In this document: in pieces, positions 15,863 to 46,189 of the stretch
Numbering within the stretch: position 1 is the first letter of the stretch
How the letters are laid out: every line of letters begins with the position of its first letter
From: Chloroflexota bacterium
Lineage (GTDB): Bacteria > Chloroflexota > UBA6077 > SHYK01
Length of the DNA stretch: 62,095 nt
Direction: 5' to 3'
Assembly: GCA_009377635.1 (NCBI GenBank)
Contig: WHTR01000003.1
Coordinates: 1-62,095, forward strand
The notes under the pieces: model-generated
What the model was told of the DNA's origin: nothing
Seen by the model: only the letters and a program-made list of their open reading frames with translations
The model's database searches: none
Translations under genes and position numbers: made by a program

Positions 15863-15865
15863 TAT

Positions 15866-17590: not shown

Positions 17591-17611
17591 GGACCTACTC
17601 CTTGTCCCACT

Positions 17612-18577: not shown

Positions 18578-18627
18578 ACATCACCTCGCTCGTGTGCATT
18601 GCCGATGCACGAGGACGATCACGCGCT

Positions 18628-20195: not shown

Positions 20196-20508
20196 CTAGC
20201 CCGGCATCACGGTCATTGCGGGCACCTCCCGATCCACCTTCCAATAGTTATGCCAGTCGATACGAGCAGGCAGCACCACGTCGCTGCGCGCAAACAGGGT
20301 GTCGGTTCGTAACGCATGTGGGTCGCGGATCACCGTGGGCGGATCACGCCCCTCCTGCACGTCCCGAATGGCCCGGAGCAGGACCCGGCGCGCCGCCCTG
20401 CGGCAGCTCCTCGGCGAGCGCCACTGGCTGCCAGTAACGCCGCAGCAGCTCTCCGCCCGGGGTACCCGGGCCGGTCCGCGTCAGCAGCTCGTTCTCCTCC
20501 TTCAGCAC
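20196..20508 (-). pseudogene. LigXa-type Rieske oxygenase reduced to fused N- and C-terminal stubs
   Basis: VLKEENELLTRTGPGTPGGELLRRYWQPVALAEELPQGGAP, then in another frame VLLRAIRDVQEGRDPPTVIRD...WHNYWK...*. Confidence 0.8.
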
Positions 20509-20626
20509 GGCTCCCTTTCTCCTCTCGCGACGTGCTTCGATTCTGACGCCAGTATAACAACGCGGGACGATTGGTTTAGAATCTGCGCACGTCCACCCCA
20601 TGAGTCGTGACGCGGGAGGGTATCTG

Positions 20627-21640: not shown

Positions 21641-21797
21641 ACACGTGGCCAGGGCAGGTGTGGCGAGCGCGCTTGGAGTTCTGGCCACATTTAGCTGATT
21701 CAGCGGCGTCGCCATGGGGGCCCGGCGTTTTGAGGAGTCCTGAAATAGCGGCGCCGCCTGAAAGCCGTTCGCTCGCACAGCAAGCCCGAGTAGGAGC

Positions 21798-22775: not shown

Positions 22776-22903
22776 CCATAGCGGAGCGGCGTCACCGCGT
22801 CCTCCCTTCATCGTCCGGGCCTCCCTGGCGAAAGCCGATGTTCTCGACCGGCTATCCCAACTCGTACGGGTGATAAGGATGGCCTAGAGGTGCGGACGGA
22901 AAC

Positions 22904-23009
22904 TGTCATCCTGAGGCCGCAGCCGAAGGATCCGTAGCGCCAATGATCGCGGGTGAACGGATCCTTCGCGGAGTTTACCCTCGAGCGGAGCGAAGGGCTC
23001 AGGATGACA
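22904..23009. repeat. Intergenic palindromic (REP/MITE-like) element, copy 1
   Basis: 12-bp terminal inverted repeat TGTCATCCTGAG...CTCAGGATGACA plus inner GAAGGATCCG/CGGATCCTTC; lies between convergent genes. Confidence 0.8.
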
Positions 23010-23030
23010 ACAGCGTTTTCGGCCGTGCCG

Positions 23031-24542: not shown

Positions 24543-24600
24543 CTTCGCGTTCCTACAATTATTCGAGCGCCTGTTCGGGCGATCCCAACTGATCTGCGCG

Positions 24601-25761
24601 CTAGGGCCTGAGCTGGCGGGCGAACTCCCGCAGGTCGCCGGCGAGGGCCTGCGGCTCCTCCAGCGCCGCGAAGTGCCCGCCCGCTGGCATCGGCGTCCAG
24701 CGCACGATGTTGTATACCCGTTCGGCCAAGCTCTTGGGCGGGCGTGTGATCTCGCGGGGAAACACCGCGTGCGCGGTGGGGACGTCGATGCGCTTGCCGC
24801 TCCCCACGAGCTCGCCCGGCGACCATTCTCCATGCCGGCGCGTGTAGTACGGCCAGAATGACGCGCCGATGCAGCCGGTCACCCAGTACAGCATCACGTT
24901 GGTCAATAGCTCATCTTTGGTGAAGCGAGACTCGATCTGTCCGTGGCAGTCGCTCCACTCTCGAAACTTCTCCACGATCCACGCGGCGAGCCCGACGGGG
25001 GAGTCGGTCAACGCGTAGGCCAACGTCTGCGGGCGAGTGCCCTGGATCCACTGGTACCCGATCCCATCCCGCTGCCAGTCGTTCTGGGCCGCGAGATATT
25101 GCCGCTCCTCGTCTGTCGCGTCGGCTGGGGCGGGCCCGGTTGGCCGCACCGTCAACATCGTCAGGTGGATGCCAGAGAGCCGGTCTGGAAAGGCGTACGC
25201 GAGACGCGCGGTGATGGAAGCTCCCCAGTCGCCCCCGGCGGCGAAGAACCAGGGGTACCCCAGTACCTCGGTCATGAGCTCGGCGAACGTTTCTGCCATC
25301 TGGGCGATGCCGAGCCGGGGCTGATTGGGCTGGAATGAGAACGTGTAGCCGGGAAGCGACGGGGCGACCACGGTGAAGGCATCGGCGGGATCACCGCCGA
25401 ACCGCCCTGGATCAGTCAAATGCGGAATGAGCTTGTAAAACTCCCAGATCGAGCCTGGCCAACCGTGGGAGAGGAGCAGCGGCAGCGGCCTGGGTCCGAC
25501 GCCTCGCTGATGGATGAAGTGCAGGGTGCTTCCGCTGATTGGCACGGTGAACTGCTCGAATCCGTTGAGGAGCGCTTCGTGCCGGCGCCAGTCGTACCTC
25601 TCCCGCCAGTAGACGGCGAGCTCCTTGAGGTAGGTGAGGTCCGTCCCGTAATTCCACTCGCCGCCGGGGATTTCGTCGGGCCAACGGGTGCGGGCCAATC
25701 GCTCCTTCAGGTCGATCAGCACGTGCTCGGGAACGTGGACTCGGTATGGACTCGGATTCAT
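24601..25761 (-). CDS. Epoxide hydrolase (EHN domain + alpha/beta hydrolase)
   Basis: HGWPGS, GGDWG nucleophile Asp, GGHFAALEEP. Confidence 0.92.
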   Translation of the reverse strand: MNPSPYRVHVPEHVLIDLKERLARTRWPDEIPGGEWNYGTDLTYLKELAVYWRERYDWRRHEALLNGFEQFTVPISGSTLHFIHQRGVGPRPLPLLLSHGWPGSIWEFYKLIPHLTDPGRFGGDPADAFTVVAPSLPGYTFSFQPNQPRLGIAQMAETFAELMTEVLGYPWFFAAGGDWGASITARLAYAFPDRLSGIHLTMLTVRPTGPAPADATDEERQYLAAQNDWQRDGIGYQWIQGTRPQTLAYALTDSPVGLAAWIVEKFREWSDCHGQIESRFTKDELLTNVMLYWVTGCIGASFWPYYTRRHGEWSPGELVGSGKRIDVPTAHAVFPREITRPPKSLAERVYNIVRWTPMPAGGHFAALEEPQALAGDLREFARQLRP

Positions 25762-25887
25762 AGCGTTCGTCTCTGCGTCTTCCGGTACGGATCGGAGCCT
25801 ACAGGAGATAAGCCCAGAGGGAAAGGGGGCAGACCTGGTCGCCTCTCCCTCTGGGCCCTCTGGGAGAGGCCGGCCTTTTCCGACCGA

Positions 25888-26439
25888 TCATGGCCCGCCG
25901 CAGTCGGTTCGACCCACCCCGTGGCCAGTGGTCGCCTTTCCCGCAACATCAGGACGTGCCTGCCCATCGCGTGAAGCGCTCGACTGTCTGGTGGCGGCGA
26001 CGAGCACTTGGAGACCGTCGCGCAGCTTGTCGAGATCCGATTCTCGCACGTGCGCTACCCATTCCCGCAGATGCTCGGGCCCGTCATGGCGAAGACGCTC
26101 CACGGACTCATCGCCCCGTCCAGTCAACGTGACATTGGTCCGACGTCTGTCGAGTGGATCCTCATCTCGACTGACGAGGCCAAGCTGAACCAGCCGCTCG
26201 ACGAGATAGCTGGCAGCGGGGGCTCCAACTCCGAGGGCGTGGCCGAGGGAGGTGACCGCTAGGGGTCCATGGTCAGCAACCGTCATGAGAGCTTTGAGCT
26301 GCGCCATCGTGACGTCGAGCTGCAGCCATGCCGGTGCGGTAGCGGCGCGGACTGCTCGCAGGATCTCCCGCTCCAGATTGACAACCTCCGCAATCACGCG
26401 CTCGCGCTGCTCGGTCGCCTCGGATTCCGTACTGCGCAT
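25888..26439 (-). CDS. MarR family transcriptional regulator
   Basis: VTMAQLKAL, LVERLVQLGLVSRDEDPLDRRRTNVTLT. Confidence 0.85.
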   Translation of the reverse strand: MRSTESEATEQRERVIAEVVNLEREILRAVRAATAPAWLQLDVTMAQLKALMTVADHGPLAVTSLGHALGVGAPAASYLVERLVQLGLVSRDEDPLDRRRTNVTLTGRGDESVERLRHDGPEHLREWVAHVRESDLDKLRDGLQVLVAATRQSSASRDGQARPDVAGKATTGHGVGRTDCGGP

Positions 26440-26643
26440 ACGACTGCTCCTCAATGGAGCTGAGTCTACGTGAATCAGTTCGAGATCGTCAATTCTTTCG
26501 AGAGGTGGCAACGAACATTGGCTTCGGAATAGAATCACCCGGCCGTGCCACATGTTGGAATGAGCGGGGGTGACGAGAGAAGATCACTGATCCTGTAGCT
26601 TCGAATGTCCTGAATCCATAACCGGGTGAAGGAGGATGGAACA

Positions 26644-27660
26644 ATGCGCTTCCTCGATGCTGATGGCCACATCATGGAGAATTTGGAGCAGATCGGCCGC
26701 TACCTCCACGCCCCGTACCAGGATGGGCGCCTCCCCAGCCTGCCCAGCCTGGACCGCTTTCACGTTCCGACGAACACCCGGGGCCCGCGTCGCGAGGGGA
26801 CGTTCGATCGCACCGTGGACGCCCAGCGTTGGTTGGAGTTCCTGGATAGGACGGAGCTGGAATGCAGTGTGCTCTATCCGACCACCGGGCTCGCGTTCGG
26901 ACAGGTCGTCTATCCAGATTGGGCGATCGCCTACGCCCACGCGTACAACACCTGGCTGCATGAGCACTACGTTACGGTGAGCCCGCGCCTCAAGGGGGTG
27001 GCGCTGATCCCGATGCAGGACGTGCCAAAGGCCGTGCAGGAGCTCAGACGCGCGGTGACGGAGCTGGGCATGGTGGCCGCGATGATCCCCTCCAACGGGC
27101 TTGCGCGCCACGTCAGTCACCGGGAGTACTGGCCCATCTATGAGGAAGCCGAGCGACTCGACGTCGCGCTGGCGGTGCACGGGGGGGCCTATGCGCAACT
27201 CGGGTTCGATTCATTCACGGTATTCCCCGCGACGCGTGCGCTAGGCATGCCATTCCCGCTTGCCATTGCCGCGACGGGGCTCATCGTGGATGGCGTGCTG
27301 GACGCATACCCGAACCTGCGTATCGGATTCCTGGAAGGCGGAACGGATTGGATTCCCATGGTGATCGACCGACTCGAGCGCGAGCGGGAGTACAGCGATC
27401 TCTCCCTCGCCGCGGCGCCTGAGGCGTATTTCCGGTCCGGCCGCATGTTCGTTGGATGCGAGGGGAATGAACGAGGGCTCTCTTACGCGGTCCAGCGGGT
27501 CGGCCCCGAGCCATTCATGTTCTGTTCGGATTTTCCGCACGAGATCAGCATGGACAACTGTATGGAAGAGATCGACGAGATTCTCGAGCGAACCGACCTG
27601 GAACAGGCGGCCAAGACAGCGATCCTAAGCGACAACGCCCGGGCGTTCTACAAGATCTAA
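26644..27660 (+). CDS. Amidohydrolase-2 family protein
   Basis: DADGHIME, VLYPT, LAVHGG, FLEGG, FCSDFPHE. Confidence 0.9.
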   Translation: MRFLDADGHIMENLEQIGRYLHAPYQDGRLPSLPSLDRFHVPTNTRGPRREGTFDRTVDAQRWLEFLDRTELECSVLYPTTGLAFGQVVYPDWAIAYAHAYNTWLHEHYVTVSPRLKGVALIPMQDVPKAVQELRRAVTELGMVAAMIPSNGLARHVSHREYWPIYEEAERLDVALAVHGGAYAQLGFDSFTVFPATRALGMPFPLAIAATGLIVDGVLDAYPNLRIGFLEGGTDWIPMVIDRLEREREYSDLSLAAAPEAYFRSGRMFVGCEGNERGLSYAVQRVGPEPFMFCSDFPHEISMDNCMEEIDEILERTDLEQAAKTAILSDNARAFYKI

Positions 27661-27756
27661 CGCGCCTGAAACACACCCTGAGGGCGGCCGCGCCCGGATA
27701 CAGGCGGCGCCATGTGATGGGCAGGGTGCGATGATCGCCAACCGACTGCGCGCTGT

Positions 27757-28809
27757 TCAGGACGTGCCGTAGAAGCGCTCGGCGTTGCCGTGGAGGATCG
27801 CCTCTTTGTCGGCCTGGCTCAGATCGTTGTGCTCGCGGATCTCACCGATCTCTTCCTTGCAGTAGTCGTTGTTCACCTCGTGGGGGAAATCCGACGAGTA
27901 CACCACCGAACGCGAGCCGGCGACCTTCACAACGTTCGGGAGTGTCGCCTCGCCCCCTTCGCAGCCCAGAAAAATGCGGCCCGCGTCGATGTGCGCGCGA
28001 ATGTAGTCGCTCACCTTCTTGTGCTCTCCGAAGTCGACGAGCTGGCCGCTCGGGTTGTAGTCGAAAAACGTCTCCGAGGAGCGGTCGAAGCGCTCCATCA
28101 CGAACGGCAACCAGCCCACGCCGCCCTCGAGGTAGCCGAAACGAACGTTCGGGAACCGGTCGAAGACGCCGTTGAAGACCATGCCGGCAAAGGAGATGAT
28201 CAGCCCAAAGGGATGGCCCAGCGCGTGGATGGGCACGAAGGCGTTCATCGTGTCCAAGCCCATGCGCATATGGCAGCCGCCATGGATGGCGACGGCGCAG
28301 CCGAGGCGATTGGCCTCCTCGTAGACTGGCCAGTACTCCTTCGACCCGAGGTGAAGCGGGAGGCCGTTCGAGGGCAGCATGACGCCCGGCATCCCCAGCT
28401 CGCCTACGCAGCGGCGCAGCTCTTCGACGGCTGCCTGCGGCTCTTGCAGCGCCAGTAAGCCCATGCCTTTCAGACGCGGCGTCTTGCTCGTGTACATCTC
28501 AGTCAGCCAGTTGTTGTAGCCCCGGGTCGTGGCGACCGCCCAATCCGGGTTGGTGATCTGCCCACAGGCAAGACCCGCGGTCGGGTAGAGGTATGCCTTC
28601 TCGATGCCGATGTCGTCCATGAACTCGACCCACTCACCCGGCCCGACCTGCTGAAATGAGCCTGGGGTGGACTGGCTGCCCAGCGAGTGGAGATGGTCCA
28701 AGGGCGGAAACGCCGGCCGATGCGCGGGGTTGAATGGCATGAATTTGTTCAGGGTCGTGGGGTTTTCAATGACGTGGCCGTCCCCATCGATGATCCGGTC
28801 CAGACTCAT
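27757..28809 (-). CDS. Amidohydrolase-2 family protein, paralog convergent with 26644-27660
   Basis: DGDGHVIE, YLYPT, VAIHGG, YLEGG, YSSDFPHE. Confidence 0.9.
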   Translation of the reverse strand: MSLDRIIDGDGHVIENPTTLNKFMPFNPAHRPAFPPLDHLHSLGSQSTPGSFQQVGPGEWVEFMDDIGIEKAYLYPTAGLACGQITNPDWAVATTRGYNNWLTEMYTSKTPRLKGMGLLALQEPQAAVEELRRCVGELGMPGVMLPSNGLPLHLGSKEYWPVYEEANRLGCAVAIHGGCHMRMGLDTMNAFVPIHALGHPFGLIISFAGMVFNGVFDRFPNVRFGYLEGGVGWLPFVMERFDRSSETFFDYNPSGQLVDFGEHKKVSDYIRAHIDAGRIFLGCEGGEATLPNVVKVAGSRSVVYSSDFPHEVNNDYCKEEIGEIREHNDLSQADKEAILHGNAERFYGTS

Positions 28810-30211: not shown

Positions 30212-31660
30212 CTACTGCATGTCCCATTCCATCACATTCCAGAATGCTCCGCCGCGGCCCTTTGCGGTTGGCTTGATGCCGGCCACTCCTGGGCGGAAGA
30301 GCGTGCTCGTGACCGCGTAGTACAGCGGTAGTTCTGGAAGCTCTTCGGTCAGCAGTTGGACCAGGCCGCGGTAGAGAGCGCGCTGCTCGTTCGGGTCGAT
30401 GGCGACCGAGAGTCTCTCGATGATCGCGTCGTTCTCCGCGCTCCGGTAGCATGCACGGTTCTGTCCTTTCCAGCCCTTTTCCGCCGACGGGCACTCCTTG
30501 CTGTGGAGTGCCTGGACGGAAAATCGGAAACTGTCGGGGAACCTCACCATGCTGAACGATGGGTAGGACACACGAAACTGATCGTCCCGATTTTGCGCAG
30601 GCGACATGACCAGAGGGTCGACGCCGAGACCGATGGACTTCCAACTGTCGGCGATCACGTTCATCTCCTGCTCTCGGTCCGCACCAGAGGCCCACAAGCC
30701 GACGGATACTTTCTCCCCCGCCGAATTCACGAGCGAGCCGTCGCCACCGCTCCGCCACCCGGATTCTTCGAGGACTTGCTCCGCACGCCGCAGGTCATGC
30801 GGGTAGAGCCGCGCTACATCCTCCACCCAGTCCCACTTGACGTCCTCACGCGGGACGAAGGTATCCGCGACAGGCGCCACACCCGCGTACAGGACCTCCA
30901 CCAGGGCCTGACGGTCAATGGCATGAAGGAGCCCCTGCCGGATGCGGGCGTCGACGATCTCCGGCGGGTTCGGGACACGGAACTGAACCCCGAGGCGGCT
31001 GTAGTGTGTCTGTTGGACGAGAAAGACGGGCTTCTTGCCCTCACTCTCCCACGTGTTCTTGACCAGAATCGCCCCGTTGAAATCCACTGCTCTGGCCGCT
31101 CCGTCCACGGCGCCGGAAAGCATGTTGGCCACTGCGGTCGAGGAGTCCCCGATGAACCGGAACGTCAGCATGTCGATCTTCGGCCGTCCGCCGTAAAAGC
31201 CATCGTAGACCTTCAATACCAGGTGGCTTCCCAGTGCCCACTCGTCCAGAATGTACGGTCCGACGCCGACGAACTCCGTCGTCCAGTACGGCAGCTTCTC
31301 GAACCGTCCCTTTTCGGTCCGATAGACGTCCTCGAGAAGATGCGCGGGGAAGGGCCCGAGGTCGTCCTCGATTATGGCGTGGGCAAACGGGTAAGTGGCC
31401 TTCCACTCGATCACCAGGGTCGAGCTGTCCGGCGTGTCGATCCGCTCGATCTGACTGGCCACGGATCGCTGGGAGATCGGGAGCTCTGGATCCAGCGTTG
31501 CCGTCAACGCGAAAGTGAAGTCCGTGGCCTGAAGCGGTGCGCCGTCGTGCCACGTGACGTTGGGGCGAAGCGTGTAGGTCGTTTGCATCGTGCCGTCTGG
31601 CCGGACGATCCAGGTACCTCGCTGCTGCGAAGGAAGCTCGACGGCAAGTTGGGGATGGAT
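30212..31660 (-). pseudogene. Family-5 ABC substrate-binding protein lacking signal peptide and N-terminus
   Basis: Begins IHPQLAVELPS...PDGTMQTTYTL; 5' end joined directly to the upstream VOC gene. Confidence 0.8.
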
Positions 31661-32117
31661 GCTGGACCGGTCCCTCGAAGTCAATATCGTATTGCTTCAG
31701 CAGTTCGATCGCCCGTTCCAACTGCTGATCCGTCACGGGAAATGCGTGTCGAGGCGAGCCGCGAAGCTGCTCTGGCGGGGGCTCCTGCTCGTGGCGCCGA
31801 GCGAGGAACAACGGCATCAGCGCGCCCCCGATCTGCACACTGCCCTGGCCCACGCCAACCAGCCGGACATTCCGGTTCGCCGACGGGTTCTCCGTCTCGA
31901 TCCCCCGTGCCTCGTCCGCGGCTGCGGCGCGGGCGCCCGTTCCTCCCGTCCGTGCGGTGTGCACGTACTCCTCGGTCGAATTCATCGACCGATGCTCGAC
32001 CCGCACGAGATCGTCGCCATAGGTGCCGCCGAATACCTGCTTGTAGAACCGCTCGGCGCGAATGAAGTCGTTGACGCGGATCACCGCATGGTCGAACTCG
32101 ATCATCGCGTTGTGCAC
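31656..32117 (-). pseudogene. Single-domain VOC protein truncated before the YFxDPxGNxxE strand
   Basis: EFDHAVIRVND, EQEPPPEQLRGSPRHAF, DFEGPVQHP, then runs into SBP DNA in another frame. Confidence 0.75.
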
Positions 32118-33777: not shown

Positions 33778-34269
33778 CTACTTCCTCGGGACGCTGAGCT
33801 CGAGGAAGTTGCTCGACGGATCCTTGAAGTAGAGCGAACGCGCCACCGGCGAGGGCGGCGAGTGCTCGACCGGCCCCTCGAACGGGATGCCGTGGTGGCG
33901 CAAGACGTCCACCGCGCGCTCCATCAGCTCGGGACTGACGTGCAGCGCAACGCGCGGGGTGCCGCGCAGCAGCTCGGGGGGCGGCTCCTGTACGTGCTCG
34001 GTGTGGAGAAACATCGGGATCAGGGCGCGGCCCACCTTGACGCCGCTGTGCGGCGCCGGCACACGAAAGCCGCGCTCCGTCTCGCCCGCGCGCTCCGCCA
34101 TGCGTTCACGGAGTCGGCCCGCGCGCAGTACCTCCTCGGTCGTGTGCAGCGTCGGGGGTTCCACCTCGCAGCCGAGCAGCTCGCCCACCACGTCATGGTA
34201 GAACCGCTCCGCGAGAATGAGATCGTTGACCGCGATGACGCTGTGGTCGAACTCCTCGATGATAGTCAT
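33778..34269 (-). CDS. Single-domain VOC family protein
   Basis: EFDHSVIAV, QEPPPELLRGTPR, FEGPVEH, YFKDPSSNFLEL; ATGA overlap with the upstream gene. Confidence 0.85.
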   Translation of the reverse strand: MTIIEEFDHSVIAVNDLILAERFYHDVVGELLGCEVEPPTLHTTEEVLRAGRLRERMAERAGETERGFRVPAPHSGVKVGRALIPMFLHTEHVQEPPPELLRGTPRVALHVSPELMERAVDVLRHHGIPFEGPVEHSPPSPVARSLYFKDPSSNFLELSVPRK

Positions 34270-35045
34270 CCCGACACTCCTTCAACGCCGACGGCATGGA
34301 CCATGCGATCGGCTTCTTCCAGGGTACGTGGCATCGTCGTATCCGTGTCGACGACGACCTGTCCATCCACCAGTTCGATCGCGTAGGCGTGCAGCGGCGG
34401 CGTACCAGCGGTATGGCCGAGATGCTCGCCCTTGCGCGTGAAGCGGTTGTAGTGGCAAGCGCAATAAAAGCGGTAGTGCTCGGGCTGGTAAGCGACGATG
34501 CAGTGCTGATGCGTGCAAACGTCGTTGAGAGCAAGAATGCCCTCCCGGAGATGAACCAGAAAGAACCCGCCCGCCTGGCTGTGGGTCACCGAGCCAACCG
34601 GGAAGTCCTCGATGCGGCCGGCGACCACTTTGCCCTGACCGGATGCGGGTACATGGAACGCATCCTCGTCGTACGCGGTGATCTGGAGGCGGTGGCCGTC
34701 TGGGTCGTTGAAATAGGTACTGACCTCTCCGACGGAGCGCTGCTCATCGCGATGGTCGACGACCAGGCAGCCGAGCCGCTTGAGTCGCTCGTAGACATTC
34801 TGGTATTCCTCCGGCGGCACAATGAAGTTGGTGTGTACGCCGGGCCCATCGCGCTGTACCCGGTCAACCTGGAGCAGGACAACGTACTGCCGCTCGGCCG
34901 TTCTGAAGGTCGCGTTCGGCCCGTCCTCCGGCCAGATATCGTGCCCCACTGGCTCCAGCCCAATCCCCTCCGCGTAGAAGCGATCGGAGCGGGCCAGATC
35001 AGAGACCTCCAGCACGATGTGATGAAAATGGCCAACCTGTGGCAT
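34266..35045 (-). CDS. VOC-Rieske [2Fe-2S] fusion protein (D1)
   Basis: FHHIVLEV...VHTNF...FNDPDGHRLQIT; Rieske CTHQHC...YCACH. Confidence 0.85.
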   Translation of the reverse strand: MPQVGHFHHIVLEVSDLARSDRFYAEGIGLEPVGHDIWPEDGPNATFRTAERQYVVLLQVDRVQRDGPGVHTNFIVPPEEYQNVYERLKRLGCLVVDHRDEQRSVGEVSTYFNDPDGHRLQITAYDEDAFHVPASGQGKVVAGRIEDFPVGSVTHSQAGGFFLVHLREGILALNDVCTHQHCIVAYQPEHYRFYCACHYNRFTRKGEHLGHTAGTPPLHAYAIELVDGQVVVDTDTTMPRTLEEADRMVHAVGVEGVSG

Positions 35046-35121
35046 GTCAGACCTCCCCCGACTACGGCGCACTCTGCCGCGCGCGGCGTAGCGGGAGCCG
35101 ACGCAGCACGCTGCTTGCGCT

Positions 35122-35150
35122 ATCGTATGACCGTGCATGTGCGCCGTCAA
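35122..35150 (-). promoter_or_regulatory. sigma70-type promoter for array D
   Basis: TTGACG-N17-TACGAT on the minus strand. Confidence 0.5.
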
Positions 35151-35234
35151 GCTCGGGCGGCGATGGTCTTTCGCGACGGAACGAGCGAGTTTTGTGCGCG
35201 ACCCGGCGAGCGATTCTCTGGAGGTTATTGCGCA

Positions 35235-36185
35235 GTGAAGCCAATCATTCTTGGGCTCCCGGATGGCAAGCTCCACGCTGCTCCTACCCTGGTGGCACTC
35301 GGTCTAAACTGCTTCAAGCATCATGGGCTCGAGGTCGAGGCCATGAATGCGGGCGCCCACACCCGCAGCATCCCTGCGATTGCCAACAACGAGGTCGACG
35401 TCAGCCCGCAGGGGCCACTGCTCGGGTTCTGCCAGGCGTGGGATCCCGCGCACCCCATGGTCATGGTCGCGGACCAGGGCTCGGTGAAGCCGGGTCGCGG
35501 CGAAGGCGCCATCGTGGCACGCACCGCGCTCCTCGAGAGCGGCCAGCTTCGAGACTACCCTGATCTGAAAGGCAAGCGGATCGGACTGAGCGCCATTCGC
35601 GGCGACCATGATTGGCTCACGTTCAATGCCGCGCTTCGAAAGGGCGGCTTAAGCCTGGACGACGTCGAGATCGTCATCTGCGACTTCGGTGAGCAGCGCC
35701 ACCGTGCGCTGGCCGAAGGACGGATCGATGCCGCCACCGTTAGCCGCCTCGGCAGCCAGATGCGTGGACGCGAAGACCGCGCGTTCGGCATCTGGAAGCG
35801 CGAGCACGAGTTCCGCGAGCGGCAGGAGCGCGCCATCACCTTCAGCCACCGGTTCTGGACCGAGCGCCCTGACGATGGTTACCGTTTCGTCCGCGCCTAC
35901 ATCGAGGGCCTGCGCGACTACTACAGCGCCTTCGAGCGGGGCCTCAATCGGGATGAGATCGTCCGAGTGCTGGCCGCCCAGGCCGGTGAGCCAGAGGAGG
36001 CGATCGCAACGGAGATGGTGCCGATGGCGGTGGACCCAAACGGGCGCATCAACGACAAGGCGATCGCGTCGGACATCACCTGGTTCCAGGAGCAAGGCCT
36101 GCTCGACCATCCGATTCCAATCGACCAGCTCATCGACTACCGTTACCTCGACGCGGCGCTACAGGATCTCGGCATCGCCGAATAG
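35235..36185 (+). CDS. NMT1/THI5/SsuA-fold (PBP2) protein without signal peptide
   Basis: CFKHHGLEVE, AIANNEVDV, DLKGKRIG, LAEGRIDAA; GTG start after GGAGGT; no hydrophobic leader. Confidence 0.8.
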   Translation: MKPIILGLPDGKLHAAPTLVALGLNCFKHHGLEVEAMNAGAHTRSIPAIANNEVDVSPQGPLLGFCQAWDPAHPMVMVADQGSVKPGRGEGAIVARTALLESGQLRDYPDLKGKRIGLSAIRGDHDWLTFNAALRKGGLSLDDVEIVICDFGEQRHRALAEGRIDAATVSRLGSQMRGREDRAFGIWKREHEFRERQERAITFSHRFWTERPDDGYRFVRAYIEGLRDYYSAFERGLNRDEIVRVLAAQAGEPEEAIATEMVPMAVDPNGRINDKAIASDITWFQEQGLLDHPIPIDQLIDYRYLDAALQDLGIAE

Positions 36186-39078: not shown

Positions 39079-39960
39079 TTAGCCCGCACACGCAATTTGA
39101 AAGAAGTTCCCGCTGCGGTCACGGAGAAAGATATCCCGGCCTTCGCGGCGGAAGCGAATCCTGCCTCCATCGTATCTGAGCGACACCGGAGAGATGCGGA
39201 CACTCGCCAGGTACGACGCCACCTCGTGGGGGGCATGCGACGATCGGAACACGAGGCGTGGGGTGTACTTGAGGAATTCCTCCGGCGGCTCCGGCAGCCT
39301 CTGGCCGGTCAGCGTAACCCCGACGTAGCCTTCGCCGAACCGGGTGAAGACTTGGGCCGCCGGCGTCGGGTTCGGCTCATGGGTTCGGAAGGAGACGTAG
39401 GCGTTCCTGGTCCATGGCGCTGCCGAATCCTTCCCTTCGGACCAGCGGTGCGCCTGGGAGACGTCTGCCGTGCTGTAGCCAAAATAGGTATCGAGCTGGC
39501 CACGGAGCGCGTTGAGATAGAACAGCTCCGCGTGCTCGATGTCCTCGACCGGGACGTAGTAGTGATCGATCAAGGTCCCGGCATGATCGGACGGAACGAG
39601 CTCGACGATATTGCCGCTCGGATCCTTCGCGTACGGAGTGGTGTCTCGCTCGCTGGGGTGATCCTCGTGCCAGCGGTTCACCTCGAACCCGGAGGCAGCC
39701 AGGCTATCAGCAACGCGACCAATCTCTGCACGAGGGATGCGGTATCCAACGTGCTGACCAGCGTGTGCAAGGGTTCGGGGACGCGGGTGACGCACGAACT
39801 CGACTGACTGGTCGCCGCCGACGAAGGTCACTCGACGTCCATGCTCACGCCACTGCCCGCGATCCGAGCCAAAGAGCAAGCTGTAGAACTCGCGCGTAGC
39901 TCTCAGATCCGCAGCGTCGAGCACGACGCTAGCAAACCCTTCGAGTTGGAGTGGCCCCAC
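39079..39960 (-). CDS. Tandem VOC protein, triad B
   Basis: GQHVGYRI...KDPSGNIVELV; IDHYYVPV...LRDRSGNFFQIACAG. Confidence 0.8.
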   Translation of the reverse strand: MGPLQLEGFASVVLDAADLRATREFYSLLFGSDRGQWREHGRRVTFVGGDQSVEFVRHPRPRTLAHAGQHVGYRIPRAEIGRVADSLAASGFEVNRWHEDHPSERDTTPYAKDPSGNIVELVPSDHAGTLIDHYYVPVEDIEHAELFYLNALRGQLDTYFGYSTADVSQAHRWSEGKDSAAPWTRNAYVSFRTHEPNPTPAAQVFTRFGEGYVGVTLTGQRLPEPPEEFLKYTPRLVFRSSHAPHEVASYLASVRISPVSLRYDGGRIRFRREGRDIFLRDRSGNFFQIACAG

Positions 39961-39972
39961 CTCCGATGTGTC

Positions 39973-40437
39973 CTACTTCTTGCTGACGAGCGGGTTGTAC
40001 GCGACCTCTTCGTCGCGACGCCAGCAGACTTCCATGAAGTTCCCGCCGGGATCCGTGAAATAGAGGGACTCGCCAAACGGACCGTGCTCGGGATGCTGCA
40101 CCGGCCCTTCGAATGGAAGTTCCAGGTCTCGCGCCCGCGCGACGACGTCGTCAAAGCGCTGGCGGCTCACCGAAAATCCAATGCGGGATCCGTCTTCGCC
40201 TCGTGGCGATTCAGGCAACGGAATGTCGTCCTGATGCGGGAACAGAACGAACAGGTAGCCAGCGACGGTGTTGCACGGATGCGGGGCGCCGCGACCCGCG
40301 CGAACGTCCTCGGTTGCTGAGCTGATGGTGTTACAGTGATGTGCTCCCAGCACATCCACATAGAACTGTTCGCCGGTTCGAACGTCGGGGACGCTGCGAC
40401 CAGTGTGGTTCAAGCCCTCGATGTTTGCCATCGTCAT
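39973..40437 (-). CDS. Single-domain VOC protein, triad B
   Basis: LNHTGRSV, APHPCN, YFTDPGGNFMEVCWRRD. Confidence 0.85.
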   Translation of the reverse strand: MTMANIEGLNHTGRSVPDVRTGEQFYVDVLGAHHCNTISSATEDVRAGRGAPHPCNTVAGYLFVLFPHQDDIPLPESPRGEDGSRIGFSVSRQRFDDVVARARDLELPFEGPVQHPEHGPFGESLYFTDPGGNFMEVCWRRDEEVAYNPLVSKK

Positions 40438-40465
40438 TCGCTCCTCGTGTAGCGTTCCGCCCAGT

Positions 40466-41386
40466 CTATGCCGTGACCGCGACCTTGGGTGGCTTCGAAG
40501 CCTGCTGCGGCTCGAAGCAGGCTCGGTGTATGACCTGGCTGGTATCCACCAGCGCGTGCCCTTCGGGGCTGAAGTTCACCGGGTAGAGGCGCAACGCGTC
40601 GATGTCCGGCTGCCCGCCCGTGGCGTTACCGCAGCGGTCGAAGGTTGCGTGGTGGTACGGACACTGGAAGCGCCAGTGCTCCCTATTCCAGATGATGCGG
40701 CCGTTCATGTGCGTGCACCACCGGCTCATAGCCAGGAACCCTTCCTTCACGCGCACGAGGAACACATCCGCTTCCTTGAAGAGCTTGACATCTCCGACTT
40801 TGAAGCTATCGGCCGGCCCGCAGTCGATCGTTCCGACATTGGGGAGAATCACTTCGGACGCCTCAGGCGCATCGCAGCAGACCTCGAGCGCGTGGTCATC
40901 CGGGTCCCGGAAGTTGACGTTGAACTCACCTTCCGCGAGGTACTGCGCTCGATCCACCCAGACGTCGATCTCGTGCTCCTTGACCTTCTCGAGCAGGCGC
41001 CGATACTGGTTGGGAGTCATGGTGAATGCGTGATGCACGGCGTTCGTGCCCAGCCGCCGGGGAACGACGTTCTTATCCTCAACCAGAACAAGCATACAAC
41101 CCGTGTTCATGCGGAGCACAGCGTGCGGCCGCTGCTCGGCCATGAGGCCGCGGCCGACGATATCCATGCCCATGACGTCATTGTAGAAGTGCTCGCTTCT
41201 GTCGAGACTGCCTACGCCCAACACCAGGTGGCTGATTCGATCGACGAACCCCTCCTCCTGGCGCGAGCCCGGGACGTATCCGTGCCCGCCATACTGGGGC
41301 AAGGCGTCCGACGCCTGCGGGAGCTCCTTTGCCTTTTCGAGCTGTCGTGTGGTCCGGTATCCATTGGCAGGTGCAGCGGTTTCCAT
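40466..41386 (-). CDS. VOC-Rieske [2Fe-2S] fusion protein, triad B
   Basis: YGGHG; ISHLVLGV...VHHAF...RDPDDHALEVC; Rieske CTHMNG...QCPYH. Confidence 0.85.
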   Translation of the reverse strand: METAAPANGYRTTRQLEKAKELPQASDALPQYGGHGYVPGSRQEEGFVDRISHLVLGVGSLDRSEHFYNDVMGMDIVGRGLMAEQRPHAVLRMNTGCMLVLVEDKNVVPRRLGTNAVHHAFTMTPNQYRRLLEKVKEHEIDVWVDRAQYLAEGEFNVNFRDPDDHALEVCCDAPEASEVILPNVGTIDCGPADSFKVGDVKLFKEADVFLVRVKEGFLAMSRWCTHMNGRIIWNREHWRFQCPYHHATFDRCGNATGGQPDIDALRLYPVNFSPEGHALVDTSQVIHRACFEPQQASKPPKVAVTA

Positions 41387-41425
41387 ACGTTTCTCCCTCT
41401 CGCAGATCAGACCATATACCTCATA

Positions 41426-42313
41426 TTATCCCAGGATATCCCATTCCGTCTTCACGAGAAACGACTGTTGGAAATCCATCGCCGCTGGTATGGCGCCATC
41501 GAGCGCACCGGCTATCAAGTTGGCGACAACTGTGGGCGCGTTCTCCACGAAGCGGAAAGTGATGGTGTCGATCTTGGCCCGCCCGGCATAAAAGCGATCG
41601 TAGGCCTTGACCGTCATGTGGCTGCCGAGAACCCACTCATCCATTTGATACGGCCCGACGCCGACGAATCCGGTCGTCCAAAAGGGAAGCTGCTGGAATC
41701 GCTCCTTGTCGGTCCGATAGACCTCCTCAATCAGATGGCCCGGGAGCGGTCCAAGGTCGTCCTCGACGATTCCGTTGGCGAACGGATAGGTTTTCGACCA
41801 TTGCACGACCAGCGTGTGATCATCTGGCGCGTCCAAACCGTCGATGTAGATGGCAACTTTGCCCTGGGAGACGGGGAGCTCCGGGTCTGTGGTGACGGTG
41901 TGCGCGAAGATAAAGTCCTTGGCGGTCAGCGGAGTCCCGTCGTGCCAGGTCACATCGTTCCGCAGTCGATAGGTCGTCTGCATGGTCCCGTCAGGGCGAA
42001 CCACCCAGTCCCCGTTATCCTGCGAAGGGAGGGCTGCGAGCTGCGCATGCAGCTCGCCTCGGTCATCGAGGGTCGCCAGCTTCTGGTGCATCGCTCCCTG
42101 CACATCGCCACCCAGGTTCGGCTGGTTTCCGAGACCGAGCGAGGTGATCAGCACCTGCGGCTCGCCCTGGAGGGCCACGCCGAGTGCTTTCGGGTCCGTC
42201 GAGGGGGCAGCGGGGCTCGTGGACTGACCGCCCGCGGGAGCCGATCCGAGCGGCGCGCAGCTGGTGGCCATGAGGGCAACGGCAATCATCGCCAGGTAAT
42301 GGCGTTTTATCAT
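41426..42313 (-). pseudogene. Family-5 ABC substrate-binding lipoprotein truncated at about half length
   Basis: Lipobox ATSC; PDGTMQTTYRLRNDVTWHDG; stops at VKTEWDILG* where paralogs continue for roughly 270 more residues. Confidence 0.8.
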
Positions 42314-42401
42314 CACCGGCCTGCACCTCGGACCATGACCTTCCGGTTCAGAATCCTACCCTCCACGCCCTCATTGGCATTCGAGCAGAATGCCCGTCCA
42401 C

Positions 42402-43481
42402 CTAACACATGCAGGGCCGTGCCACGGCAAACGAGGCCGGGGTTCCCTTGAGCGGCTTGATCGTATACGCCGAGATCGTGTCCCCAATATCGTAGGGATT
42501 CTGCGGAGCGTTGCGATTCCGTTTCGTAAACCCACGCCCAGCGCCATGGTCAACGCCCTGCGGCGTGAAGAGGATTGAACCCGTCATCGGTCCTGACGAT
42601 AGATAGCGCATCTCGTCGACATCGGCGTCTCGGTGCACCGGAGCCGACGTGCCACCGCCGGAGAGGTGGAGCGTCCATGCAAGATTCTTGGCATTATCCA
42701 GGTAGGCCCCTCCCAGGAACGGAACCGGCGTGCTGCCCAGCTTCTCGATATCCATTACTTTGAACTTGAAGATGCCGATCTCGCCGTCGATGATCTCGGT
42801 GTCGAGTGGATAGCGGTCGTACGTGATGGTCGAGACGTCGCCCAGAAACTCGGAGAACGCGCCGCTGTACTTGACCCGCACCTCGCACCCGCCCTCCGGC
42901 AGCGCACCGTCCGGAAGACGCGGTCGCTCGACCCGGGACGGATCGACCGCTGGTCGACCCTTGCCATACACATGGTCGACCATCTCTACGGGTACGAGAA
43001 ACACTTCGGGACGGGACTCGTAGATCATCCGCAGGGTATCCGGGGCGCCACGTACGGACGCTCGATGGGTTACCCCCTTCGGGATGACCAGGAACTCCCG
43101 CTCATTCACGTCGATGGATCCGAAGTCGGTCTCGTAGGTGAACTGGCCTCGACTGATGAGATGGACCTCATCGGCATCGCAGTTTCGAAAGAAGAACGGC
43201 ATGCTCTCGCGGCGCCGTGAGATCCAGACCGATACGTCGTCGCTGTAGAGAACCTTCGTGGCTTCGCCGAACGGAGACTCCATGTCGGTGGTGGACGGCG
43301 TGCCAGCCGGAATCTCCCAGTTCTGATAGTTTCCTTGAACGCTCTTCCACTCCATGGGGTGCGTCTTGCGATAGAGGACGGCGTCCGTCCCCCAGAGTGC
43401 CCGCCGGTTGTAGTGGTGACGTACCAGGTCGACCTGGCTCATATCCTTCTGAGTGACTCGCCCAGCGGTTGTCTCCGCCAT
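42402..43481 (-). CDS. Divergent homogentisate 1,2-dioxygenase-like double cupin
   Basis: FFRNCDADEVH...ETDFG...VIPKGVTHR; C-terminal PVHRDADVDE...FTPQGVDHG (His/Glu/His iron triad pattern). Confidence 0.7.
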   Translation of the reverse strand: MAETTAGRVTQKDMSQVDLVRHHYNRRALWGTDAVLYRKTHPMEWKSVQGNYQNWEIPAGTPSTTDMESPFGEATKVLYSDDVSVWISRRRESMPFFFRNCDADEVHLISRGQFTYETDFGSIDVNEREFLVIPKGVTHRASVRGAPDTLRMIYESRPEVFLVPVEMVDHVYGKGRPAVDPSRVERPRLPDGALPEGGCEVRVKYSGAFSEFLGDVSTITYDRYPLDTEIIDGEIGIFKFKVMDIEKLGSTPVPFLGGAYLDNAKNLAWTLHLSGGGTSAPVHRDADVDEMRYLSSGPMTGSILFTPQGVDHGAGRGFTKRNRNAPQNPYDIGDTISAYTIKPLKGTPASFAVARPCMC

Positions 43482-43890
43482 CGCCGTTCTCCTCGGGTTT
43501 TCGCGCCATTACGAGCGTGCGCAGCGGACATTCAGGTGCTACCGGCAATCGAACCGCTCGTACCGGACAGGTGCCCGGGCGCGAGCCCGCCAGCCGCGAA
43601 AGCCGGTAGCCCGAGCGCCATCGTATCCGGAGTGGAGGGCAAGGTCAACCTCAACTCGTCAAATCGCCGAATGATCTTGACGAATGCGGCAGGCACTTGC
43701 AGAATGGGTGCGGCACGGGACAGCACCGTAGAATGAGGGTTCGTGCCTTCGGCCAACAACTCAAGGAGGATTGGCCGCGATAATCCGGATGTCGATGTGC
43801 CATTGTCTCAAGCGCTAGAATCTGGCCAGAAGCGGGCGGGAGCCCGCATCCGCGCCTATGTCTGCGCAGCGCGCGGGGAGAGGAGTTTCG

Positions 43891-44766
43891 ATGCATCTCC
43901 AAGACCTACCAAATGCGTCGGATGATGCAACATTTTTTGGAGGTCACGGCAGTCGGCCTGAGGACTGGGGAGCGCACATTCCAGCCGAACGGTTCAGCCA
44001 CCTCGCACTCGGCGTGACGAATCTGGACAGGAGCGAGGAGTGGTACCGCGACGTCATCGGGCTCGACGTCGTCGGCCGCAATCTGACCGCGGAACCATTG
44101 CCGCATAGCGTGCTGCAGATGAACACCGGGCAGCTCATGATCCTCGTTCAGGGTCGGGAGATTCACATTCCGGGACGCTCCGGCGTTCACCACGGGTTCA
44201 TGCTCACGCCGAACCAGTATCGCCGGGCGCACGACCGTCTCAAGGAATTGGGCTACGACATCGGCGACGAGCGGCAACAGTACCGGGCGCACGGCGAGTA
44301 CAGCATCGACATCGAGGACCCGGACGGGCACCGGTACCAGCTCCAGACGTACGGGCCGGAGGCGAACCTGCCGATGCCCGGCGCCGGCATCGTCGATTGC
44401 GGGACCCCGGACACCTACCGCGTCGGGGACGTCCGCGCCTTCAAGGACGGCAACTTCTTCCTGGTGCGGCACCACGAGGGCTTCCTTGCCCTATCGCGGT
44501 GGTGCCGCCACATGAATGGCACCGTCATCTACCAGAAGGCCCATTGGCACTTCGTCTGTCCGTTTCACGACGCCACGTACGACCGACGCGGCGTGGACGC
44601 GCCGTTCATGGGCAACCGTGCCCAGGGCCCGCTGCATCTCCACCCGATCACGTTCGGCCCGGAAGGGCACATCCGGGTCGACACGGACACGATCATCCCA
44701 CGTGATGGCTACGACGCGAGCCAGGCGGCCCAGCCGCCGGCGGCGGAACTCGCAGCCGCGAGGTAG
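43891..44766 (+). CDS. VOC-Rieske [2Fe-2S] fusion protein, triad C
   Basis: MHLQ...GGHG; FSHLALGV...VHHGF...DPDGHRYQLQ; Rieske CRHMNG...VCPFH. Confidence 0.85.
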   Translation: MHLQDLPNASDDATFFGGHGSRPEDWGAHIPAERFSHLALGVTNLDRSEEWYRDVIGLDVVGRNLTAEPLPHSVLQMNTGQLMILVQGREIHIPGRSGVHHGFMLTPNQYRRAHDRLKELGYDIGDERQQYRAHGEYSIDIEDPDGHRYQLQTYGPEANLPMPGAGIVDCGTPDTYRVGDVRAFKDGNFFLVRHHEGFLALSRWCRHMNGTVIYQKAHWHFVCPFHDATYDRRGVDAPFMGNRAQGPLHLHPITFGPEGHIRVDTDTIIPRDGYDASQAAQPPAAELAAAR

Positions 44767-44819: not shown

Positions 44820-45278
44820 ATGGCAGAGGTTGAAAGCATCAGCCACAGCGGAATGGTTGCCCCAGACAGCCGCTCCGTGCATGACTGGTACGAGGACGTG
44901 ATGGGCGGCCATTGGGCCGAGACGGTCAGTCGCAACTACGAGGGGACTCGTGGAGCGAACGCGCACTCCTGCGGCATGATCGCGGACTACCTGTTTGTCA
45001 CCTTCCCGCGCGAGCGCGATATGCCCGGCCCCCAAATGCTGAAAGGCGGCGAGGAGAGCTACCGCCACGCGTGGGCGGTTTCCCGCGAGCGCTTCGAGGA
45101 GAGCCTGAAGTGGCTCGAGGAGCACGGCGTGGAGTTCGAGGGACCGGTGAACCATCCCGAGCATGGGCCCCTGGGCCAGTCGATCTACTTCCGTGATCCG
45201 GGCGGGAACTTCTTCGAGGTCTGCTGGAGGCGTGACGAGAGCCGCGAGTTCAACCCAGTCATCCTGGCGAGCGTCTGA
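44820..45278 (+). CDS. Single-domain VOC protein, triad C
   Basis: ISHSGMV, NAHSCG, YRHAWAV, YFRDPGGNFFEVCWRRD. Confidence 0.85.
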   Translation: MAEVESISHSGMVAPDSRSVHDWYEDVMGGHWAETVSRNYEGTRGANAHSCGMIADYLFVTFPRERDMPGPQMLKGGEESYRHAWAVSRERFEESLKWLEEHGVEFEGPVNHPEHGPLGQSIYFRDPGGNFFEVCWRRDESREFNPVILASV

Positions 45279-46189
45279 TGGCTGCCACGGCTCCCGCGCC
45301 GACCCGCTCCCAGCGCGTCGCCGCTCTGGCCGATCTCCTGGGAGGCGTGATCCTGGAGGTGCGCGACCTCGCCACGACCCGGTCCTTCTACGAGCCCATC
45401 TTCAGCGATGTTCCGGGCACGTGGCAGGAGCAGCGCGGCCGCCTGGTCTACCGGACCGAGCGACAGGCGATCGAGTTCGTCAAACGCGCGCGCCCACGAA
45501 GCTTCGCTGATAGTGGCCAGCACCAGGCGTATCGCGTTCGGCCAGATCGCATAGAGGGACTCACCGAGCGGCTTGCCAAGGATGGCCACGAGGTAAACTG
45601 GTGGCGCGAGGACAACCCGGCTGAGCACGAGGTCGCCCCCTATGTGCTCGACCCCGATGATCATCGGGTTCAGCTCGTCGGCTCGAGCAAGCTGGACCTG
45701 CTCCTCGACCACGCCGCGATGGAGATCCACGCGTTCGACTATTGCGAGCGCGTGTATCGAGGCGTCCTCGGCGGAACGGTTTCCTACTACCACGGCTGGC
45801 GCGTCGAGGACGAGGCGGATGCGAAGCGCTGGGGGCGTGGTGAGGACCCGGCGTTTCCCTGGTCCCGCCGCGACAACCCCGGATGGTTCGACTTCGCGCG
45901 CGCGGCCACCCGGGACCCCAACCTGAGAGTGCCGCGGCCCGCGACACAGGTGTTTCTCGCGTTCGGGTCCACCACCCTCGGTCTGATTAGCGCCTCGAAG
46001 ACCCGCCAGGAGCTGCCGGAGGAGATCATTCGTGGCCTGCCGCGGCTGGTCTTCCATAGCGCGCGTCCGGCCGAGGAGGCGTTCGCGCACATAGAGAAGG
46101 CCCTGCCGATCCCGTGGGAGCGGGAGGGCTCGACCGCCTATGTCCGCGACCCGGACGGCAACTTCGCCGAGCTCAGGTGTGCGGGGTAG
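45278..46189 (+). CDS. Tandem VOC protein, triad C
   Basis: GQHQAYRV...DPDDHRVQLV; LDHAAMEI...YVRDPDGNFAELRCAG; TGATG overlap with the upstream gene. Confidence 0.8.
   Translation: MAATAPAPTRSQRVAALADLLGGVILEVRDLATTRSFYEPIFSDVPGTWQEQRGRLVYRTERQAIEFVKRARPRSFADSGQHQAYRVRPDRIEGLTERLAKDGHEVNWWREDNPAEHEVAPYVLDPDDHRVQLVGSSKLDLLLDHAAMEIHAFDYCERVYRGVLGGTVSYYHGWRVEDEADAKRWGRGEDPAFPWSRRDNPGWFDFARAATRDPNLRVPRPATQVFLAFGSTTLGLISASKTRQELPEEIIRGLPRLVFHSARPAEEAFAHIEKALPIPWEREGSTAYVRDPDGNFAELRCAG

Follow-up and report, generated by a model that had tools for sequence, protein, structure and literature searches.

Results

A short HGD-like gene in a Chloroflexota contig

We analysed a stretch of 62,095 nucleotides (contig WHTR01000003.1, positions 1 to 62,095, assembly GCA_009377635.1; hereafter the window) from a Chloroflexota metagenome-assembled genome (MAG) of 3.5 Mb and 84% completeness. 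Our subject is the minus-strand gene at 42402–43481, whose 359-residue product, P0001, is probably an Fe(II)-dependent ring-cleaving dioxygenase with the fold of homogentisate 1,2-dioxygenase (HGD, or HmgA), acting on a substrate other than homogentisate within an island of aromatic catabolism. An earlier sequence-only reading had taken it for a divergent HmgA-like dioxygenase at the head of a triad of VOC-Rieske genes, cleaving a hydroquinone-type product of the VOC-Rieske system. The gene and its upstream region comprise the following features.

42402–43481, minus strand: gene for P0001, a 359-residue, HGD-fold (bicupin) putative Fe(II) ring-cleaving dioxygenase, based on the open reading frame (ORF), homologues, AlphaFold2 model and fold match
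43489–43494, minus strand: Shine-Dalgarno sequence GAGGAG, 7 nt upstream of the P0001 ATG, read from the sequence
43482–43857: divergent intergenic region of 376 bp between P0001 and triad C, with one promoter-like site per strand

A single ATG-started ORF of 359 codons fills positions 42402–43481 exactly, and its GC contents at the three codon positions (0.61/0.46/0.75) match those of the neighbouring genes. About 60 homologues of the same length, 55–69% identical, were found in metagenomes and MAGs. Because of the ORF, its codon composition, the GAGGAG site and the same-length homologues, we regard P0001 as the product of a real gene under selection. An ORF of 682 codons on the opposite strand (40403–42451) was rejected as an antisense artefact, having the wrong composition and overlapping two well-supported minus-strand genes. 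The two promoter-like sites in the divergent intergenic region, where 0.8 would be expected, are consensus matches only and carry no weight; scans of this region for promoters, terminators and repeats gave nothing beyond such matches. The search of the host genome for a second copy or remnant of the gene returned one match only, an unrelated cupin on contig C296 (E 1.5e-6).

Fold of P0001

Sequence models of HmgA recognise one part of the protein, and a second stretch holds the predicted metal site.

43041–43244, minus strand: N-terminal cupin core, residues ~80–147, the sole stretch recognised by HmgA sequence models (Pfam, TIGR01015, 3zds alignment)
42546–42635, minus strand: predicted metal-site codons H283 (42633–42635), D289/E290 (42612–42617) and H312 (42546–42548), in the motifs PVHRDxDxDE and TPQGVDHG

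The Pfam model HgmA_N matched residues 80–147 with a borderline 20.5 bits against a gathering cut-off of 20.2, and Cupin_2 matched residues 105–145 below its cut-off. HgmA_C was not detected by Pfam in P0001 and was weakly detected in distant relatives. The NCBIfam equivalog model TIGR01015 gave 17.9 bits over residues 78–145, against a cut-off of 510.75. When P0001 was compared with the Protein Data Bank (PDB) by phmmer, HmgA from Pseudomonas putida (3zds) matched at E 0.013 over residues 82–143. A profile of the close family (A1) reached E 3.4e-5 against the PDB, in the N-cupin only, and hhalign of A1 with canonical HmgA aligned only residues 86–277, at a probability of 93%. The C-terminal metal site was reached with a profile (A2) in which A1 was broadened with 21 distant full-length relatives; A2 matched P. 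putida HmgA at E 3.2e-28 over HmgA residues 128–409 and human HGD at E 1.6e-23.

The structure modelling that the sequence-only reading had suggested singled out HGD as the specific fold match. The AlphaFold2 model of P0001, built from 25 family members, has a mean predicted local distance difference test (pLDDT) score of 75 and a predicted template-modelling score (pTM) of 0.81. Foldseek matched it to both P. putida and human HGD at E 1.8e-17 (TMq 0.64), with the next family ten orders of magnitude behind at E 1.7e-7. Aligned with 4aq2 by VIA-align, residues 51–359 of the model superimposed on residues 92–419 of the chain with a Z score of 26.7 and a root-mean-square deviation of 2.9 Å over 280 residues, whereas all other bicupins, including gentisate/salicylate dioxygenases, quercetinases, oxalate decarboxylase and pirins, reached Z ≤13. 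The HmgA-type N-cupin motif of the sequence-only reading is thus real, marginal by sequence and strong by structure. On the predicted structure, P0001 is a member of the two-domain HGD (HgmA_N/HgmA_C bicupin) superfamily and is collinear with it over most of its length.

Compared with HGD, a hexameric enzyme of known structure (3zds/4aq2, and 1ey2 from human), P0001 has the same two-domain cupin fold from residue ~50 to the end, has the His/Glu/His iron ligands in the same motifs (HRN/D...E and HG), and keeps the inter-domain PLD...G...K/Y motif. Unlike HGD, it is ~75–110 residues shorter (359 residues as against 433 in P. putida and 445 in human), the loss falling mostly in the N-terminus and the loops of the C-domain, and with an identity of ~16% it lies far below the TIGR01015 family cut-off. 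The gentisate, salicylate and 1-hydroxy-2-naphthoate 1,2-dioxygenases (2phd, 3nl1) are also bicupin Fe(II) enzymes (class III), which cleave beside a single ring hydroxyl. Some of them need no para-hydroxyl, which is relevant here since P0001 lacks the histidine that binds the para-hydroxyl in HGD (see below). Their fold match to P0001 is nevertheless much weaker (Z ~12 as against 26.7), and they use a 3-His site, unlike the His/Glu/His site of P0001.

In the N-cupin of P0001, residues 104–119 (43125–43172, minus strand) hold a family-invariant cluster of D104, E105, H107, E117 and D119 (DADExH...YETDFG). H107 is absent in canonical HmgA, and the N-cupin is the non-metal domain in HGD. The cluster might bind a second metal or contribute to the contact between the domains.

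Predicted metal site

The iron ligands of HGD are His331/Glu337/His367 in P. putida and His335/Glu341/His371 in human (PMC6337169; bioRxiv 10.64898/2026.06.02.729205). In the A2 HMMER alignment, H283/E290/H312 of P0001 fall on these residues in both enzymes. As no HmgA over the TIGR01015 cut-off occurs in the sampled genomes of the phylum, we used a canonical Streptomyces HmgA (P0211; 706 bits on TIGR01015) as a stand-in for a MAFFT alignment, which agreed on both histidines and, through the placement of a gap, put the carboxylate on D289 rather than E290. All four residues are invariant in the close family (A1); in the wide alignment (A2) E290 is invariant, and H283, D289 and H312 are at least 90% conserved. 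By alignment, P0001 conserves a 2-His-1-carboxylate triad (H283, E290 or D289, H312), which is the predicted iron site. The His/Glu/His pattern that the sequence-only reading had seen in the C-cupin is therefore confirmed.

Substrate pocket

In human HGD, His292 hydrogen-bonds the ring hydroxyl para to the iron-bound one and His365 takes part in proton transfer, with Pro295, Pro332 and Tyr333 as further homogentisate contacts (bioRxiv 10.64898/2026.06.02.729205). In the HMMER profile alignment and in MAFFT with canonical HmgA, none of His292, Tyr333 and His365 is kept in P0001. The HGD motif DHxDPS, which carries His292, aligns with VPFLGG of the target family at P254/F255 (posterior ~0.8 for this column); P281 stands in the place of Tyr333, and T306 in that of His365. 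Many distant relatives keep a histidine in an HGD-like SERxHxPPS motif, which is absent in the target clade and in its sister clade. The family has invariant motifs of its own that are absent from HGD, namely GAFSDFLGE in an insertion, AYLDN, and GRGYTKxERN after H312. Its family-specific invariant residues include Y260, D262, R316, N324 and Y339.

Judged from the alignments, the homogentisate-recognition residues of P0001 are replaced, which suggests that the substrate would be another hydroxy- or methoxy-derived aromatic. The hydroquinone-type substrate proposed by the sequence-only reading stands in part: fungal HGD-like methoxyhydroquinone dioxygenases provide a precedent (PMC11634970), but the histidine that would bind the para-hydroxyl is absent from P0001, so that a para-diol is not established.

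Search for a homogentisate pathway

The search for pathway partners gave little that would point to homogentisate. In the host genome, at 84% completeness, neither a canonical HmgA nor a MaiA was found, and the best HPPD score, 24 bits where the cut-off is 277, is noise. Among HPPD, MaiA and fumarylacetoacetase, FAH-family genes alone were found. There are five of them, the nearest two at 74.7–76.2 kb on the same contig, ~31 kb from P0001 and outside the window; the sequence-only reading was right that no maleyl- or fumarylacetoacetate genes lie nearby. Across 100 genomes sampled from the phylum, no HmgA passed the TIGR01015 cut-off.

The Binatia relatives described below differ in part. MaiA scored above its cut-off (292–300 bits) in all four genomes searched, HPPD was found in none of the four nor in the Chloroflexota genome G127, and canonical HmgA was found in neither of the two Binatia genomes searched for it (G134 and G136). 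In G134, MaiA lies ~0.9 Mb from the HGD-like gene. A hidden homogentisate operon at the Binatia MaiA was considered and rejected, as the neighbours are unrelated: MFS transporters, RmlD, a phosphoesterase, a VOC protein, TctA and, 5 kb away, an FAH-family gene. A homogentisate role in Binatia is unlikely, and the view that P0001 stands outside any homogentisate pathway is supported.

Phylogeny and distribution

In a maximum-likelihood tree of 30 sequences, the target family (A1) formed a single clade (100/100) with a long stem; its sister group (100/97) is a second clade that lacks a His292-like residue. Canonical HmgA fell in the other half of the tree, as rooted at the midpoint and with canonical HmgA as a long branch. 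When clustered at 50% identity, the close family collapsed to one full-length representative, and a further 268 clusters were found at E ≤0.001. A language-model look-up with P0001 returned HgmA_N-bearing clusters only.

The named genomes of the close relatives are MAGs of Chloroflexota and Candidatus Binatia, and the host genome shares its bacterial family with three of the Chloroflexota MAGs. Relatives at 23–29% identity come from Streptomyces, Planctomycetota and others. The short subfamily of ~358–365 residues in Chloroflexota and Candidatus Binatia is a distinct, uncharacterised clade. Other short HgmA_N-bearing proteins (339–434 residues; Actinomycetota, Planctomycetota, Bacteroidota and others) belong to the same superfamily as this clade, are of similar length and conserve the H...DE...H ligands, but are only 21–28% identical to P0001, and most keep the SERxHxPPS histidine.

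The literature search for characterised bacterial HGD-like enzymes yielded a fungal precedent only. HGD-like PcMHQD1/2 from Phanerochaete chrysosporium (Kato et al. 2024) cleave methoxy- and dimethoxyhydroquinone (as reviewed in PMC11634970). They resemble the function that we propose for P0001, in that an HGD-family protein cuts a lignin-derived hydroquinone instead of homogentisate in a lignin-type setting. Unlike P0001 they are eukaryotic, and the likeness is one of concept only, drawn from their description rather than from sequence.

In one cultured isolate, Streptomyces sp. NPDC004539 (L021/L050/L052), a short HGD-like paralogue with 29% identity to P0001 exists alongside a canonical HmgA that scores 706 bits; the two are therefore not interchangeable there. 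The isolate is a handy organism for the study of short HGD-like forms.

Genomic contexts of the family

Seven Binatia loci were available, five with DNA (L001, L015, L017, L019, L020) and two as gene tables only. The conserved Binatia cluster (L001 8439–13838, with the same order in the two gene tables) consists of a gene for a 248-residue unknown protein, a dienelactone hydrolase gene, the HGD-like gene, and genes for a poly-4Fe-4S protein and an aldehyde:ferredoxin oxidoreductase (AFOR), with two MoeA genes downstream. The neighbourhood of an O2-dependent dioxygenase and a tungsten/molybdenum AFOR is an unusual pairing. No VOC-Rieske gene lies within 10 kb of the HGD-like gene in the five Binatia loci with DNA.

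On contigs from Chloroflexota and from metagenomes without an assignment, the gene directly upstream of the HGD-like gene in L002 and L049 encodes a LigXa-type Rieske oxygenase, with LigB downstream in L002, and UbiD, Mo-hydroxylases and luciferase-like monooxygenases are encoded near HGD-like genes. A gene for a solute-binding protein (SBP; SBP_bac_5 or SBP_bac_1) adjoins the HGD-like gene or lies one gene away at the Chloroflexota and unassigned loci with readable flanks, but not at an interrupted copy in genome G129. In the window, the stretch 12649–28809 also contains a DHDPS-family gene, an OCD/mu-crystallin gene and a GMC oxidoreductase gene, together with the following.

14141–15862: SBP_bac_5, beside the LigXa-like gene
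15866–17272: LigXa-like Rieske oxygenase
18628–19791, 26626–27660 and 27757–28809: three Amidohydro_2 genes

The common theme of these contexts is the oxidative catabolism of aromatics, which fits a ring-cleaving dioxygenase. Cleavage of a hydroquinone without an acetate side chain yields a hydroxymuconic semialdehyde. The adjacent aldehyde oxidoreductase and dienelactone hydrolase, with maleylacetate as the product of the latter, would fit such a route.

VOC-Rieske triads beside P0001

Beside P0001 in the window lie an SBP gene and VOC-Rieske triads.

39079–41386, minus strand: triad B, with a VOC-Rieske fusion (40466–41386), a small VOC (39973–40437) and a tandem VOC (39079–39960), by Pfam Glyoxalase and Rieske
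41426–42316, minus strand: truncated SBP_bac_5 gene, 296 residues, N-terminal half only, 85 bp downstream of P0001
43858–46189, plus strand: triad C, with a VOC-Rieske fusion (43858–44766), a small VOC (44820–45278) and a 303-residue protein (45278–46189), divergent from P0001

The order on the minus strand is P0001, SBP_bac_5, VOC-Rieske B, small VOC and tandem VOC, followed by triad A, with gaps of 85, 39, 28 and 12 bp along the row from P0001 through triad B. The arrangement is as the sequence-only reading had given it, co-oriented with the SBP and triad B and divergent from triad C. The 303-residue protein of triad C has no Pfam match and resembles the tandem VOC proteins of other triads.

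Two loci orthologous to triad B were found in the same bacterial family, one on contig C187 of genome G129 (L054; VOC-Rieske 75% and tandem VOC 64% identical) and one on contig C164 of G127 (L055; VOC-Rieske 69% identical). The HGD-like gene is absent at both, an SBP_bac_5 orthologue 60% identical to the fragment in the window lying upstream of the triad in each; upstream of that SBP stands an NMT1-family gene at one locus and another SBP_bac_5 gene at the other. Three other loci, with four triads between them (one each in L056 and L057, two in L058), likewise lack the HGD-like gene. Within the bacterial family, four of eight genomes have an HGD-like gene and six of eight have VOC-Rieske fusions (7, 1, 4, 7, 16 and 6 hits). 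The ratio of VOC-Rieske to HGD-like copies in the four genomes with the gene is 7:1, 7:1, 16:1 and 6:1, and the two most complete genomes, G095 (98%, 4 VOC-Rieske copies) and G126 (99%, 1 copy), lack the HGD-like gene. The copy in G129 (C206; L013/L018/L059 701–1795) lies beside unrelated genes and contains an in-frame TAG, so that it was called as fragments of 210 and 92 residues, which marks either a pseudogene or a fault in the assembly. Of the four Binatia genomes, two yielded no VOC-Rieske gene at E ≤1e-10; each of the others has one, distant from the HGD-like gene or on a separate contig.

The SBP between P0001 and triad B covers Pfam SBP_bac_5 profile positions 10–180 of 368 and ends 39 bp before the start of VOC-Rieske B; no C-terminal half of an SBP lies between it and the next gene. 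Its counterpart in G127 (L055), 60% identical, gives one full-length tblastn alignment, and in G129 (L054) C-terminal SBP_bac_5 sequence follows, split into ORFs of 381 and 140 residues. The triad-B-linked SBP may be decaying in more than one lineage, and the copy in the window is best read as a deletion remnant. This remnant, with an arrangement that is not conserved, suggests that P0001 reached the head of triad B by a local and recent rearrangement. An ancestral unit of HGD-like gene and SBP, joined later by triad B, was ruled out by the SBP orthologues linked to triad B without an HGD-like gene in G129 and G127; the SBP is thus part of the triad unit, to which the HGD-like gene was added later. 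The SBP pieces at 30212–31684 and 41426–42316 were also considered as halves of one gene, which was ruled out because both cover residues 178–395 of the SBP at L016. The position of P0001 at triad B is not a conserved functional coupling, and the genes of triad B are its co-oriented neighbours.

Some further observations concern the triads and SBPs themselves. VOC-Rieske fusions are strongly expanded in this Chloroflexota family (G129, G127, G130, G095; L054–L058), with up to 16 hits in an 80%-complete genome, and occur outside it in one of 31 genomes of the order. VOC-Rieske, small VOC and tandem VOC form a recurring unit, usually with SBP_bac_5 beside it. An SBP_bac_5 paralogue in the window deserves mention.

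30212–31684, minus strand: SBP_bac_5 paralogue, 490 residues from a TTG start, as against 573–595 in its paralogues

This protein shares 51% identity with the SBP encoded after the HGD-like gene of G127, and aligns to the L016 SBP only from well inside, its N-terminal part (the signal/lipobox region) seemingly missing. A plus-strand ORF of 629 codons at 34296–36185 is unlikely to represent a single gene: the match to NMT1 is confined to its 3' part (residues 329–541), and its 5' part overlaps a minus-strand VOC-Rieske-like match at 34314–35093 (31% identical to VOC-Rieske B; ORF 34266–35276).

Discussion

The fold, the predicted metal site and the genomic contexts favour, as the more probable account, a ring-cleaving dioxygenase of HGD fold that does not act on homogentisate. 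P0001 would be a cytoplasmic, mononuclear Fe(II) enzyme in which the hydroxyl, and perhaps a carboxylate, of an aromatic substrate binds to the iron as in HGD, O2 is activated, and the ring is cut next to that hydroxyl. Substituted hydroquinones and acids resembling gentisate or salicylate are candidate substrates. The substrate would be made by Rieske oxygenases or demethylases and imported through the SBPs found around the family at almost every locus.

Several points weigh against this account. For every member of the subfamily, function rests on sequence, predicted structure and context, and the mapping of the substrate residues is a sequence alignment at ~16–20% identity. The pLDDT of the model drops below 50 at residues 278–282 and 313–324, beside two of the metal ligands. 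Cupin sites of the 2-His-1-Glu type also hold other metals and support reactions other than oxygenation. In the window and in one other genome, the HGD-like gene stands in an operon-like row with VOC-Rieske genes. The latter is G127, the sole other genome with the two side by side, where on contig C483 (L016/L012) a 60%-identical orthologue lies directly downstream of two D-type VOC-Rieske/small-VOC pairs. Each D-type VOC-Rieske gene there is followed by one for a 163-residue small VOC-like protein, and then come the HGD-like gene and a full-length SBP_bac_5 gene, all on one strand with gaps of ~90–100 bp. A functional link of the HGD-like gene with D-type VOC-Rieske modules in this bacterial family is possible.

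These rows lead to the proposal of the sequence-only reading, in which the VOC-Rieske system has P0001 as its dedicated enzyme for ring cleavage: a hydroquinone-type product would come from the triads for P0001 to cleave, and co-transcription of the genes would serve this purpose. The co-orientation with the SBP remnant and triad B, the short gaps between them and the same-strand row in G127 speak for it, as does the finding that all four genomes of the family with an HGD-like gene have at least six VOC-Rieske hits. We consider it unlikely, given the absence of the gene from both orthologous triad-B loci and from the four further triads, the large excess of VOC-Rieske copies, and G095 and G126, where VOC-Rieske genes occur without it. 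In G129 the copy lies at another place and is interrupted, the five Binatia loci with DNA have no VOC-Rieske gene within 10 kb, half of the four Binatia genomes give none at E ≤1e-10, and the adjacent SBP is a deletion remnant that points to recent rearrangement. The sequence-only reading had itself named absence from other triad loci as an observation that would count against it, and this is what the co-occurrence comparison found at the loci of A/B/C type, the one positive case being the D-type row in G127.

A different enzyme altogether is a still more doubtful prospect: a cupin that does not cleave rings, be it an isomerase, a decarboxylase, a hydrolase, an oxygenase of a non-aromatic substrate or an inactive binding protein. 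Bicupins with similar sites do many chemistries, and the lower fold matches include YlbA/ureidoglycine aminohydrolase, oxalate decarboxylase, pirins and quercetinases. The family's own invariant motifs would suit such a function, and the Binatia neighbours (dienelactone hydrolase and AFOR) do not by themselves demand ring cleavage. Yet the HGD Z score is twice that of any other bicupin, the ligands occupy HGD positions, and the contexts are dominated by aromatic oxygenases. Only a slim chance falls to a true, if extremely divergent and shortened, homogentisate 1,2-dioxygenase yielding maleylacetoacetate. The metal triad is intact, and no other fold matches nearly as well as that of HGD; the Binatia carriers have MaiA without a canonical HmgA in the two genomes searched; and homologues are labelled 'homogentisate 1,2-dioxygenase' in their sources, though such names are automatic annotations. 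The TIGR01015 score is a small fraction of the cut-off, the equivalents of His292, Tyr333 and His365 are absent, and no locus shows a context of tyrosine catabolism. HPPD was not found in the host, the four Binatia genomes or G127, nor MaiA in the host, and the Binatia MaiA sits in a distant, unrelated neighbourhood.

We therefore return to the non-homogentisate dioxygenase of HGD fold. To our knowledge, the HGD fold in bacteria is known essentially for one reaction, the cleavage of homogentisate in tyrosine catabolism. P0001 belongs to a sizeable radiation of short HGD-like proteins that databases label 'homogentisate 1,2-dioxygenase', and its own clade is without the homogentisate-binding residues. 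For the VOC-Rieske triads the result is mainly negative, and P0001 should not serve to infer their chemistry. Assigning its substrate would correct a systematic misannotation and would add a ring-cleavage step to the poorly understood catabolism of lignin- and humic-type aromatics in uncultured Chloroflexota and Binatia.

Going further, we tentatively suggest, as a possibility that we hold with considerable doubt, that the short Chloroflexota/Binatia clade represents a new ring-cleavage specificity. Its Fe(II) dioxygenases, without recognition of a para-hydroxyl or acetate group, would cut the ring of demethylated phenolics from lignin or humic matter, whether mono-hydroxy acids or substituted hydroquinones, and release an aldehyde or an enol-lactone. 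In Binatia the neighbouring dienelactone hydrolase and tungsten/molybdenum AFOR would take over this product, and in this Chloroflexota family the enzyme would have been recruited beside VOC-Rieske modules. If true, this specificity would add a missing lower-pathway step for the turnover of aromatics in abundant uncultured bacteria of soil and groundwater.

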